Positions 35,748 to 41,858 of a stretch of 64,000 bases of DNA are shown one piece after another. The first letter of the stretch is position 1, and every line of letters starts with the position of its first letter. The translations under genes and the position numbers were made by a program. Below the pieces are notes generated by a model. The model was given only the letters and a program-made list of their open reading frames with translations, ran no database searches and had not been told where the DNA came from. Source of the DNA: Escherichia coli. Lineage in GTDB: Bacteria; Pseudomonadota; Gammaproteobacteria; Enterobacterales; Enterobacteriaceae. The stretch lies in the NCBI RefSeq assembly GCF_002854065.1, contig NZ_CP024147.1. One strand, given 5' to 3'.

Positions 35748-36830
35748 TTAGAACTGGTAAACCATACCTACAGCAACGATATCATCGGTAGCAACGCCAG
35801 ATGCTTTCGTGAAATCGCTCTTATCAATCAGGTTGATTTTGTAGTCAACAAAAGTGGACATATTTTTGTTGAAGTAATAGGTTGCACCTACATCAACATA
35901 TTCAACCAGGTCCTGATCACCCCAAACACCCAAGTCTTTTCCTTTAGAATGCAGGTAAGCAACGGATGGACGCAGGCCGAAGTCGAACTGATATTGTGCA
36001 ACAGCTTCGAAGTTTTGTGCTTTGTTGGCAATATGGTTATTACCAAAAACAGTCATGTTCTGGGTTTCAGAATAGGTGGTGGCCAGATAGATGTTGTTCG
36101 CATCATATTTCAGACCAGCTGCCCATACTTCAGCATTTTGACCAGAAGCATTCAGACCGTTGTTACCGTAGATAACCTGATTATTAGTGCGATCAGATTT
36201 AGCATAGGTTGCACCCACGCCGAATCCTTCATACTCATAAGTAGTTGAGAAACCGAAACCATCGCCATTAGCTTCAGTTACTTCATTTCGGTCATTTTTG
36301 CCCTGATACTGAGCTGCAAAGTTCAGGCCATCAACCAGACCAAAGAAGTCGTTGTTACGATAAGTTGCAACACCTGTGGTGCGACCAGTCATGAACACAT
36401 CTGTTTGGGTCCAGGTATCGCCACCGAATTCTGGCAGAACGTCAGTCCACGCACCGATGTCGTATGCTACACCGTAGTTACGGCCGTAATCGATTGAGCC
36501 GTAGTCACCGAATTTCAGGCCAGCGAAGGCAAGACGGGTTTTATCTTTGGAGGAACCTTGAGATTCAGCGCGGTTGCCTTTGAATTCATATTCCCACTGA
36601 CCGAAACCAGTCAGTTGATCGTTGATTTGGGTTTCACCTTTGAAGCCAAGACGGGCATAAGTAGTATCACCATCATCTGCATCATTAGAGGAGAAGTAGT
36701 GCTTAGCATTAACTTTCCCGTACAGATCCAGCTTGTTACTGTCTTTATTATAAATTTCAGCTGCCTGAGCAGACATCGCCATCAGTACTGATGCAGCTAC
36801 AGCAGAAATTGCCACTGTTAATTTTTTCAT
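35748..36830 (-). CDS. nmpC: OmpC/OmpF-family outer membrane porin, intact
   Basis: 360-aa ORF with signal peptide [23 protein letters not shown] and C-terminal ...VYQF; recognised as NmpC. Confidence 0.9.
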
Positions 36831-38571: not shown

Positions 38572-38603
38572 TTTTTTTGCAAATCACAAAGTCCATTTAA
38601 TGA

Positions 38604-38627
38604 GCCTCGCGATGCGGGGCTTTTTTT
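38604..38627 (+). terminator. rho-independent terminator after lysis cassette
   Basis: GCCTCGC-gat-GCGGGGC hairpin followed by TTTTTTT. Confidence 0.55.
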
Positions 38628-38866
38628 ACATCTGAATTTCACAGCGCATCTCACGCGCATATTACATCACCCGAGCCTTTCAGAAAGTTGAGCCTGAGAA
38701 CTGCCGTATATGGTGGCGACCATCTCGGGGCGGCTTTTCTGTGAGACAGGCTCACTTTCTAAAAGGTAAAGACGCTATGAACCAATTAGAAGAAAAGCTT
38801 CAAAGAATGATTTCCTTATACAAGGAAGATAACTGCCAAAAAGTTCCTTAAAACATCGCAGAGTTA

Positions 38867-39265
38867 ATGGAATTGGCAAGTGAATTTTCTGGCATGCTTA
38901 AGTCGTCAGGTGTTCGGTCAGCGTTCTTTGTTGAAATGCTGATGCACGGCGGACTTATGGCAACAATGAGACGTGTAATGGAAGACCAGAGAAAAGAACC
39001 TCCTCAGGTATACGTTTTGTCATCGAAGAAAACTGGGCTAACCAAAATTGGGTATTCATCCAACATTCCACAACGCATCAAATCGCTTGGCAACTCTGGA
39101 CCAGACTGCTTGAAGCTTGAGTGCCTGATCCCTGGTGGAAGAGAAACTGAAAACATGCTTCATCGCAAATTTGCCGCAAAGAGAAAGCACGGTGAATGGT
39201 TCGCCCTGTCCAAGGATGACATTGAGGGATTGAAATCTGTAGCGATTACTTCTGATGGCTATTAA
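38867..39265 (+). CDS. T5orf172/GIY-YIG-like domain protein
   Basis: 132-aa ORF; motif VYVL..TGLTKIGYS..RIKSL...HRKF...HGEWFAL; in frame with a 24-codon upstream ORF separated by one TAA. Confidence 0.45.
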   Translation: MELASEFSGMLKSSGVRSAFFVEMLMHGGLMATMRRVMEDQRKEPPQVYVLSSKKTGLTKIGYSSNIPQRIKSLGNSGPDCLKLECLIPGGRETENMLHRKFAAKRKHGEWFALSKDDIEGLKSVAITSDGY

Positions 39266-39943
39266 TGCTTGTTTAGAGCAATTTTCATAACAACTCTTCA
39301 TTACAAAGCCCATCTACTGGTGGGCTTGATAATGAAACCGTGATTTACATCCCCACAATCCGGGTATGTAAAAGATAGTTCAGGCGAGAACGGATTTAAC
39401 TAAATCTGTGCGCCACCAGTTAACGGCAGTACCACGAAACAACCCAAGCCAGTAAGTGGGGAAATAACACCGGCAGCCACTGAAAGATGAACCTCCTGCC
39501 TTATGGCAAAAAAGATTCTTTGTGGTGGCGGACTGATGGAAAGACATCCTAATTTCAGCCAAACATTGAAGGAGTTGTTATGTCAGCAGAAGGTTTCAAT
39601 AACCCATCAAAATTCCGGGATGAGTGGGATAGCAGCGTAAAGAGTAAGTGATGCCATCACAAAAGCCATTCCCTACAGAGTGGCTTTGATAATGGCTTAT
39701 ACCCTACACGGGATAACTTAACTGATATCCTTTTTAAAGGATAAAGGTATTCAAGCCTGACACATCATGCGCTGTATCGTCGCCGTATTCCCGTATTAAC
39801 AGAGACCGTAGCCCGACGGGGAACTCCTTCTGCGCGAGTGTGCGGGAATAATCAAAAACGATGCACACCGGGGTTACCGGGTACACATATTTCATCATGC
39901 CAGCGAGTCCGGTTCTGGCACGGAAGAAACCGGACGTTATGAT

Positions 39944-40354
39944 TTAGTGCGGAAATATTTGTGTAGTGTTCTGAATGTTCTCAGTAAAGAGTAATGAATT
40001 ATCAAAGGTATAGTAATACCTTTTGTTTTCGTGGATATTTGTAATCCATCTGAAAACCCCTGCTGTAGCAAGATTTTTCCTGTATTCGTAAAATGATAAC
40101 TCTCCTGATTTGAATCCTTTTAATGTGGTTTCTATAAGGCATTTATTTTTTGAAAATCTTACATTTACAACCTTACCCTGTCCTTTTATTAAAACCGTAT
40201 TATCGTTTTCAAGAACAAGATGAATATTCTCTGTGGCTAAATAGTAAATGTAATGTGAGACATTGTGACGTTTTAGTTCAGAATAAAACCAGTGATAGTT
40301 TAAATTATTTCGCACTTTATCGAATATTTGTTTAAAAATGGCAACCTGAGCCAT
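39944..40354 (-). CDS. ybcV: prophage protein YbcV-like
   Basis: 136 aa from [14 protein letters not shown]; recognised tentatively. Confidence 0.55.
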
Positions 40355-41033: not shown

Positions 41034-41858
41034 ATGGAAGTCAACAAAAAGCAGCTGGCTGACATTTTCGGTGCGAGTATCCGTACCATTCAGAACTGGC
41101 AGGAACAGGGAATGCCCGTTCTGCGAGGCGGTGGCAAGGGTAATGAGGTGCTTTATGACTCTGCCGCCGTTATAAGATGGTATGCCGAAAGGGATGCTGA
41201 AATTGAGAACGAAAAGCTGCGCCGGGAAGTTGAAGAACTGCGGCAGGCCAGCGAGACAGATCTCCAGCCAGGGACTATTGAGTACGAACGCCATCGACTT
41301 ACGCGTGCGCAGGCCGACGCACAGGAGCTGAAAAATGCCAGAGACTCCGCTGAAGTGGTGGAAACCGCATTCTGTACTTTCGTGCTGTCGCGGATCGCAG
41401 GTGAAATTGCCAGTATTCTCGACGGGATCCCCCTGTCGGTGCAGCGGCGTTTCCCGAACGGCACGGTCGATGTGTTCCGCGGCTGGGTCAGCAGTATCGG
41501 TAAGGCGGTGACGGCGAAGGAAGTGATTACCCGCACGGTGAAAGTCACCAACGTAGGACGTCCGTCGATGGCAGAAGATCGCAGCACGGTAACAGCGGCA
41601 ACCGGCATGACCGTGACGCCTGCCAGCACCTCGGTGGTGAAAGGGCAGAGCACGACGCTGACCGTGGCATTCCAGCCGGAAGGCGCAACCGACAAGAGCT
41701 TCCGTGCGGTGTCTGCGGATAAAACAAAAGCCACCGTGTCGGTCAGTGGTATGACCATCACCGTGAAAGGTGTTGCTGCAGGCAAGGTCAACATTCCGGT
41801 CGTATCCGGTAATGGTGAGTTTGCTGCGGTTGCAGAAATCAACGTCACCGCCAGTTAA
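41034..41858 (+). CDS. nohD: terminase small subunit Nu1 N-terminal 141 aa fused to tail tube V-like Ig (Big_2) C-terminal domain
   Basis: First 141 aa match lambda Nu1 ([30 protein letters not shown]...); remainder matches C-terminus of lambda gpV ending VTAS. Confidence 0.85.

Follow-up and report, generated by a model that had tools for sequence, protein, structure and literature searches.

Two imperfect palindromes in a prophage region of Escherichia coli, here called hairpins A and B, share a fold that is under selection, is biased to one strand and keeps a fixed asymmetric internal loop, and the evidence below establishes that this fold has a fixed place in the late operon of phages and lies at recombination breakpoints. 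The window analysed is a stretch of 64,000 nucleotides from contig NZ_CP024147.1 (assembly GCF_002854065.1); positions count from its first letter, and the strand as given is called the + strand. The hairpin is a real and widespread element, apparently undescribed so far, and most likely acts in messenger RNA. Its RNA-level role, the enzyme involved and the direction of cause between function and recombination are what we infer from these observations.

Hairpin A occupies 39297-39336 on the + strand (core 39299-39334) and is seen as inverted repeat I3 (39297-39312/39321-39336), as an RNA fold and as a covariance model match of 57.4 bits. As + strand RNA it has a lower stem of 7 bp (TTCATTA/TAATGAA), a CA/GA internal loop, an upper stem of 9 bp (AAGCCCAUC/GGUGGGCUU) and the apical loop UACU; a 96-nt segment, in which a second hairpin is included, folds at -33 kcal/mol with z = -5.5. 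Hairpin B occupies 39653-39696 on the same strand (core 39655-39694), with inverted repeat I2 (39653-39671/39678-39696), the RNA fold and a covariance model match of 54.4 bits behind it. Its lower stem, GCCAU/AUGGC, has 5 bp plus one C-A mismatch adjoining the CA/GA internal loop, and above this stand a 10-bp upper stem (AAAGCCAUUC/GAGUGGCUUU) and the apical loop CCUACA (z = -4.4). Common to both are a lower stem, a 2x2 internal loop of 5'-CA-3' facing 5'-GA-3', an upper stem of 9-10 bp and a small loop; the cores align in register, and the arms they have in common are the direct repeats D3 and D13.

The sequence-only reading had placed and quoted both copies correctly, as the repeat finder's I3, I2, D3 and D13 confirm, and had described a unit of about 65 bp with 7-bp stems. 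The conserved part is smaller, a hairpin of 36-40 nt (40-44 nt with the extended lower stem), and the upper stems in the RNA fold are 9-10 bp long. The downstream "CCC...GGG" halves, once counted as shared, are non-homologous, and about six unrelated forms follow GATAATG in relatives. In the window the one after A is the second hairpin at 39344-39372 on the + strand (TTTACATcCCC / GGGtATGTAAA, inverted repeat I20, also seen in the fold), which is not conserved and is swapped for unrelated small hairpins in other phages.

A generic pattern of this kind (5-bp stem with at most one mismatch, CA, 7-bp stem, loop of 4-15, GA), sought on both strands, is observed twice against 0.37 expected per shuffled 64-kb window, and both occurrences are on one strand, 356 nt apart. 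The covariance model, partly built from copies A and B themselves, finds A and B as its sole matches in the window; the next best, at 39997-40046 on the minus strand within a DUF1398 gene, scores 11.9 bits (E = 2.5) and was treated as chance. No Rfam 15 family reaches its gathering and E-value thresholds at A or B, the sole overlap being a chance hairpin match to mir-458 on the minus strand (22.2 bits against a threshold of 59). A scan for intrinsic terminators calls neither copy, and the absence of a U-tract noted earlier is borne out, the stem being followed by GAUAAUG. Three further identities were tried and rejected. Read as a promoter, with GATAAT as the -10, the region has no sigma-70-like site at or near the hairpins in the scan, and the variable loop length would shift any -35. 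The likeness of GGGATAAC to the type I-E 3' handle of CRISPR repeats comes with a mismatched stem and length, and the GGGATAAC portion is not conserved. Similarity to an IHF or XerCD/dif-like site is partial, limited to the core and judged by eye only, and it is missing from class B2.

Relatives were collected in three samples: 120 IMG/VR loci, retrieved through a 20-mer that lies downstream of B; 80 loci, retrieved through the protein HkbM/DUF2560 encoded downstream (identical proteins only, hence an independent sample without deeper divergence); and the annotated phages HK106, HK620, epsilon34, HK022, HK544, P22, Stx2-1717, FSL SP-016, AsXd-1 and Louie. Far from being absent from related prophages, as the sequence-only reading had allowed it might be, the hairpin is decisively present in HK620, HK022, HK106, P22, Sf6, ES18 and the Stx2 phages, and the core of A is 100% identical in Stx2 phages 1717 and 2851. 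A BLAST search with 38560-39960 matches 363 phage records and 4,045 of 5,426 E. coli genomes, nearly always in pieces that begin or end at the hairpins. For example, query position 1093 corresponds to 39652, where homology begins exactly at B in many E. coli prophages, and one match consists of 39299-39334 alone. When the hairpins themselves are used as queries, A is found in 1,367 and B in 1,872 of the 5,426 complete E. coli genomes (25-34%), the annotation at the matched positions always being "none", and the median is one place per genome having any hairpin. The well-annotated HK620 record likewise has no feature at the hairpin positions.

Across about 200 loci and the annotated phages, the hairpin is confined to the interval enclosed by Rz and the first head or packaging gene, lies on the strand of the late transcript and is present in one or two copies per phage. 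It is intact at the same place in 73 of the 74 loci chosen by HkbM, and the 74th has a chimeric hairpin. A boundary element scattered genome-wide was considered and rejected, there being only two covariance model matches in the whole HK620 genome, as in the 64-kb window.

That the two different stems of A and B both pair had pointed to a selected structure, and the larger collection upholds this, with five classes related by compensatory changes, a near-invariant CA/GA loop and wobbles on the transcribed + strand. The upper-stem classes are AAGCCCA/TGGGCTT, GAAGCCC/GGGCTTC, AAAGCCA/TGGCTTT, GAGACCA/TGGTCTC and, in P22, GAGGCCA/TGGCCTC; the lower stem takes the form CATTA/TAATG or TATTG/CAATA. 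Among the roughly 200 phage loci the intermediates between classes are G.U wobbles on the + strand, as in the A-U, G.U, G-C series GAGACCA/TGGTCTC, GAGGCCA/TGGTCTC and GAGGCCA/TGGCCTC (P22). Since all the sequences are closely related and recombining, the five classes represent few independent events. Over 44 distinct hairpins pairing stands at 97.4%, a figure biased upward by prior filtering of the set for pairing; 7 of the 14 pairs show two-sided changes, and the covariation score reaches 0.411 where shuffles give 0.224, none of 500 shuffles attaining the observed value. Sliding the 3' partners out of register leaves only 33-52% paired. An independent RNAalifold run yields an upper stem of 10 pairs with compensatory changes in 6.

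Because of that filtering, the count was repeated on loci chosen only by a downstream DNA anchor (125 instances, 31 distinct sequences, one chimera included), and 95.4% of positions are still paired. The CA/GA internal loop is present in 29 of these 31 sequences; AsXd-1 has AA/GA. In the upper stem, read on the + strand, there are 12 G.U cells and no A.C cells, and every polymorphism there (AAGCCTA, AAGCTCA, GAGGCCA, GAGGTCA, GGGGCCA) is G.U-compatible on that strand. The lower stem is looser, with 17 G.U against 9 A.C cells, C-A and A-C mismatches being tolerated. Pairing falls from 95.4% on the + strand to 90.1% when the sequences are read as the - strand. The + strand is the sense strand of the late transcript, and to judge by these alignments the bias favours folding of that strand, in the sense of the late operon.

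The neighbours of the hairpin vary as freely as its fold is fixed. Over 330 instances the left 20 nt fall into about 17 unrelated contexts and the right 20 nt into about 6, in 31 combinations, and both edges of the hairpin are sharp breakpoints of homology: a conserved 36-40 nt sits exactly where phage homology starts and stops. Most left contexts have a stop codon 1-3 nt ahead of the hairpin. Both ORF assignments made from the sequence hold in the window, the GIY-YIG/T5orf172 gene ending 31 nt upstream of A and the 23-codon ORF ending 1 nt from the extended stem of B, or 3 nt from its core at 39655. The position 3' of small ORFs stands; the tie to those particular ORFs is incidental, given the 17 or so upstream contexts that occur. 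About 35 of the 330 instances, in two left-context clusters, follow immediately on a bona fide terminator (for example GCGGGGCTTTTTATTGC-CATTACAAAAGCC and ...GGGGCTTTTTATTGC|CATTACAAAAGCC). A hairpin in that position cannot be the terminator of that cassette, and it would be transcribed mainly by read-through (Q-modified) polymerase.

One or two slots are delimited in this way, each opening with a conserved leader (leader 1 or leader 2). Between Rz and A the cargo is Rha, KilA-N with HkbL, GIY-YIG, a protein annotated as anti-CRISPR, or nothing. The spacing from A to B ranges from 233 to 1,540 nt across phages, and the cargo there is gp49-like or protease-like, a KilA-N protein, or a small protein of 61, 72 or 80 aa. 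Every phage keeps at least one hairpin, even where cargo is absent, and in locus L152 it is kept although the downstream sequence is deleted. Several loci bear marks of exchange at the hairpin. In L034, L041 and L126 an A hairpin is joined to the downstream flank of B. In L095 and L176, about 40 nt upstream of the anchor, lies a chimera in which the left arm and loop start of class A meet the loop end and right arm of class B1; its arms are unpaired, and the junction within the loop is rare. Compared with phages whose slot 1 is empty, HK620 has a second copy of the 9-bp sequence CATTACAAA at the left end of its slot-1 insert. In P22 the pid moron, in opposite orientation and with its own terminator, directly follows the hairpin plus GGCTTATACC (L129 1550-1640, which is P22 40349-40439). 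The annotated P22 "orf25" begins in the hairpin loop and is probably spurious.

In the window the series begins at a lambdoid-type lysis cassette of holin, endolysin and Rz (37.4-38.6 kb, + strand). Directly after the Rz stop, at 38582-38604 on the + strand, is a half copy of the hairpin, a member of direct-repeat family D3 (38583, 39300, 39656). It reads AATCA-CA-AAGTCCA-TTTAATGAG, left arms and loop only, is fused to the Rz terminator, and has a loop, TTTAATGAG, identical to that of the P22 hairpin. HK620 and epsilon34 carry its homologue, "CATTACAAATACCAGGATTT" (CATTACAAATACC...), ahead of the same terminator, and its left context leads to a complete hairpin in phages whose slot 1 is empty, a further mark of exchange. 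The intrinsic terminator itself (38602-38629, + strand; 38602-38622 as called by the scan) is a 9-bp stem followed by T7, and is annotated as rho-independent in the HK106, HK544 and epsilon34 records.

Leader 1, about 150 nt at 38630-38777 on the + strand, is conserved upstream of the slot-1 cargo whatever that cargo is, and is common to phages with Rha, KilA-N or GIY-YIG genes (homologues at L002 1531-1672, L003 1536-1674, L125 2765-2881 and L129 705-848). It has no Rfam match. It is predicted to form a long nested helix in which CCTTTCAGAAAG pairs with CTTTCTAAAAGG beside the ribosome-binding site, around an inner hairpin that resembles a terminator; in the consensus fold of five sequences, two-sided changes occur at 8 pairs. 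Leader 1 may be a cis-regulatory RNA in its own right. The slot-1 cargo that follows, a GIY-YIG/T5orf172 gene (phrog_4284; 38778-39265, + strand), has an in-frame TAA at 38849-38851 where HK106 gp64 has GAA (...QKVP*NIAEL...); the gene is interrupted by this nonsense codon, and the 132-aa ORF from 38867 is thus its tail.

Leader 2, about 210 nt of non-coding sequence at 39337-39545 on the + strand, is a conserved stretch lying between hairpins A and B. Its homologue in P22 makes up the body of the small RNA P22G, and in other phages it is the 5' leader of the slot-2 cargo. At 39443-39478 it contains a partial, sub-threshold match to the Rfam family Proteo-phage-1 (19.8 bits against 42); CCCAAG...GAAAUAACACCGGCAGCC matches both ends of that family, and the family's two internal hairpins are missing. 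In slot 2 stands the putative 23-codon ORF (39580-39651, + strand) with a strong AAGGAG Shine-Dalgarno; it belongs to no PHROG family and is unannotated in HK544 despite the same sequence there. Beyond B, a weak terminator-like hairpin (39710-39735, + strand; GGGATA...TATCCT, then TTTT) is conserved downstream of B-type hairpins, and past it the DUF1398 gene lies on the opposite strand. The 3' part of that gene, at 39997-40046 on the minus strand, holds AAAGGTAT/ATACCTTT, an 8-bp palindrome without mismatch that has CA and GATAAT at its flanks; its likeness to the hairpin motif is probably chance. Upstream of the lysis genes, at 35748-36830, an nmpC-like porin gene is reminiscent of DLP12. The ORF at 41034-41858 starts like the small terminase subunit Nu1/NohD and ends in an Ig-like (Big_2-type) domain, the domains having been recognised by eye; its composition suggests that a large internal deletion fused packaging and tail genes and that the prophage is defective. 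The surroundings of the lysis genes suggest a defective DLP12-like prophage.

Transcript data from P22 touch the same structures. A 2026 study of small RNAs in P22-infected Salmonella describes ten phage RNAs (PMC13397905). One of them, P22F, maps to the leader before rha, a position homologous to leader 1 (PMC13397905). Another, P22G, is 204 nt long and runs from the end of rha through the leader-2 homologue to a 3' end, ...GCAGAGGCCAU, inside the P22 hairpin (PMC13397905). That boundary lies in the apical loop, away from the canonical RNase III position. The reference sequences do not differ there, so it is no alignment artefact of that kind; because the reads are of 101 nt and the boundary rule is coarse (PMC13397905), it is suggestive only. 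In phage BTP1 the late genes form one long polycistronic transcript (PMC7067206). About 22 bp fit into RNase III, which in vivo favours a cleavage centre of two G-C/C-G pairs with A/U on either side (PMC6212723). The hairpin adds up to about 20 helix positions (5-8 bp in the lower stem, the 2x2 loop, 9-10 bp in the upper stem), at the lower limit for this enzyme, whose substrates have about 20-22 bp of helix and may contain internal loops. The upper stem carries invariant C-G, C-G and A-U pairs near its top, a loose fit to the preference of RNase III that is not diagnostic: the ACCA of class B2 agrees with the W-S-S-W preference (PMC6212723), and classes A and B1 have SSS. A symmetric 11+11-bp site is unavailable, since the stem extends just 3-4 bp from the invariant CC/GG towards the loop.

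These features can be assembled into a model. A and B belong to one family of sense-strand hairpins that lambdoid and P22-like phages carry in their late operon, where the stretch from the lysis cassette (S-R-Rz) to the first head or packaging gene is organised as one or two slots, each running from a conserved structured leader through a variable accessory ORF to the hairpin. In a Q-antiterminated late transcript, or in a cargo transcript that reaches the hairpin, the irregular helix of about 20 positions would serve as a processing or stability signal, most likely as the target of an endonuclease that cuts double strands, RNase III for instance. Recognition would rest on the fixed CA/GA loop together with the upper stem's invariant CC/GG and A-U pairs, and the stem that remains would protect the upstream cistron, so that variable cargo is uncoupled from the morphogenesis genes downstream. 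As the sole sequence common to otherwise unrelated neighbours, the hairpin also offers 36-40 bp of homology through which phage or host recombination can swap cargo. We give this whole reading, a sense-strand RNA processing or stability hairpin of RNase III-like geometry that doubles as homology for cassette exchange, an even chance of being right.

The alternatives place the function elsewhere. One is that the hairpin works in DNA, as a single-strand fold or cruciform at which a recombinase or nuclease moves cargo in the manner of an integron attC site. The sharp breakpoints at both edges with their 31 left-right combinations, the 9-bp duplication beside the HK620 insert, the chimeric hairpins of L095 and L176 and the half copy at the Rz terminator (38582-38604) would all follow from such a site; its layout of two stems parted by an unpaired spacer and topped by a variable loop recalls attC, stop codons adjoin it as in integron cassettes, and the strand bias is compatible with it too, because G.T wobbles are tolerated in folded single-stranded DNA as well. 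We nevertheless consider it unlikely. The neighbours are Rz, cargo, DUF2560, HNH and terminase genes, with no intI or attI beside the hairpin and no integron integrase, HUH or other dedicated enzyme conserved there; the attC core sites R''/R' (RYYYAAC ... GTTRRRY) are absent from all 44 hairpin variants; and no phage has more than two copies. Ordinary homologous recombination in 36-40 bp, combined with selection for intact units, predicts the same breakpoints, and the leaders conserved on the other side of the cargo supply ordinary homology as well. A hybrid of the two readings, in which the leaders and a strand-specific hairpin, read in single-stranded form by a nuclease or recombinase, would both process the transcript and catalyse exchange of cargo, has an outside chance in our estimation. 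It would amount to a small integron-like cassette system without an integron integrase, carrying accessory, anti-defence or superinfection genes, and would make the lysis-to-packaging interval of lambdoid phages a dedicated socket for such cargo.

It is equally conceivable, and in our judgement improbable, that the hairpin is a passive recombination linker (a "boundary sequence") or a small selfish palindrome, free of any RNA function. Breakpoints of homology do coincide with it, and there is precedent for such linkers (Susskind and Botstein 1978; Clark et al. 2001, both as cited in PMC3029335). However, a passive linker needs no fold, and here pairing is kept through two-sided changes in 7 of 14 pairs while CA/GA stays fixed; moreover, one hairpin is retained where there is no cargo to exchange, and the hairpin survives the downstream deletion in L152. 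A palindromic operator, bound as double-stranded DNA by a dimeric phage or host protein, we hold to be distinctly improbable. The palindrome is imperfect, with conserved outer half-sites CATTA...TAATG, and in classes A and B1 the IHF consensus core, TATCAA, can be seen by inspection on the minus strand. Against this, the half-sites vary by class (CATTA/TAATG versus TATTG/CAATA; AAGCCCA versus GAGACCA) so that complementarity alone is conserved, the asymmetry of CA versus GA and the G.T-only polymorphisms are unexpected of a symmetric duplex site, and the ATCAA core is missing in class B2. Finally, an atypical intrinsic or Rho-dependent terminator of the cargo genes would suit a stable, GC-containing stem just 3' of ORFs, but is very improbable for an element that lacks a U-tract (GAUAAUG), is not called by the scan, and in about 35 of 330 instances already stands behind a bona fide terminator.

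Whichever of these applies, an unannotated element absent from Rfam is present in about one quarter to one third of complete E. coli genomes and in the model phages P22, HK620, HK022, Sf6 and Stx2. It provides a concrete case for the old, unsettled idea that short conserved linkers partly drive phage mosaicism, the linker here being a single small, covarying hairpin flanked by about 17 different neighbours on the left and 6 on the right. The hairpin further marks the exact edges of a hotspot for Rha, KilA-N, GIY-YIG, gp49-like, anti-CRISPR-annotated and pid-type accessory genes, edges that are useful for accessory-gene mining and for engineered insertions. Should the role in RNA processing or stability be true, the hairpin would act as a natural insulator, allowing phages to exchange cargo with late-gene expression undisturbed.

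The element is of a familiar kind, an intercistronic mRNA hairpin or a module linker, in a context richer than the sequence-only reading described. RNase III hairpins are well known from the polycistronic mRNAs of phages, as at the R1.1-type sites of T7 and the N-leader and sib sites of lambda. Like these, the hairpin is intercistronic in a long phage transcript, and its helix is irregular, measures about 20 bp and is broken by an internal loop; the role predicted for it, separation of cistrons with a protective 3' stem, is the same; unlike them, it has no sequence similarity to those sites, is short for RNase III and coincides with recombination breakpoints. REP elements, which stabilise upstream mRNA, are like it in being imperfect palindromes of about 35-40 nt with a conserved internal mismatch just 3' of genes in operons. 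REP/BIME elements, however, are dispersed in hundreds of copies, are linked to RAYT and have the signature GTAG/CTAC, whereas the hairpin occurs once or twice per phage at a single locus and ends in CATTA...TAATG or TATTG...CAATG with no GTAG. The put-type antiterminator RNA of HK022, which modifies RNA polymerase, consists of two stems and lies just downstream of an early promoter; the position of the hairpin, 3' of late-operon cargo, argues against a likeness.

Comparison can also be made to systems in which a stem-loop accompanies variable genes. The PeSL (promoter-early stem-loop) cassettes of T4-type phages, reportedly described by Arbiol et al. in 2010, are said to occur in many copies and to include an early promoter. 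They too are short repeated stem-loop motifs that flank variable ORFs and have been proposed to drive modular shuffling; the hairpin differs in lying 3' rather than 5' of the ORFs and in having no promoter detectable in or near it. With integron attC sites it shares an inverted repeat conserved in structure and variable in sequence, an unpaired spacer, a variable loop, a place after the stop codons of cassettes and the setting of cassette boundaries; it differs in having no IntI/attI, no R/L box consensus and at most two cassettes, and in the conserved leaders 5' of the cargo. The boundary or linker sequences in the modular theory of lambdoid phage evolution (Susskind and Botstein 1978; Clark et al. 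2001, for HK620), as the citing literature characterises them, are likewise short, conserved and located at the junctions of non-homologous modules, and the many left-right combinations seen around the hairpin agree with this. Unlike a plain linker, the hairpin covaries and keeps its internal loop fixed, and this implies a function beyond homology.
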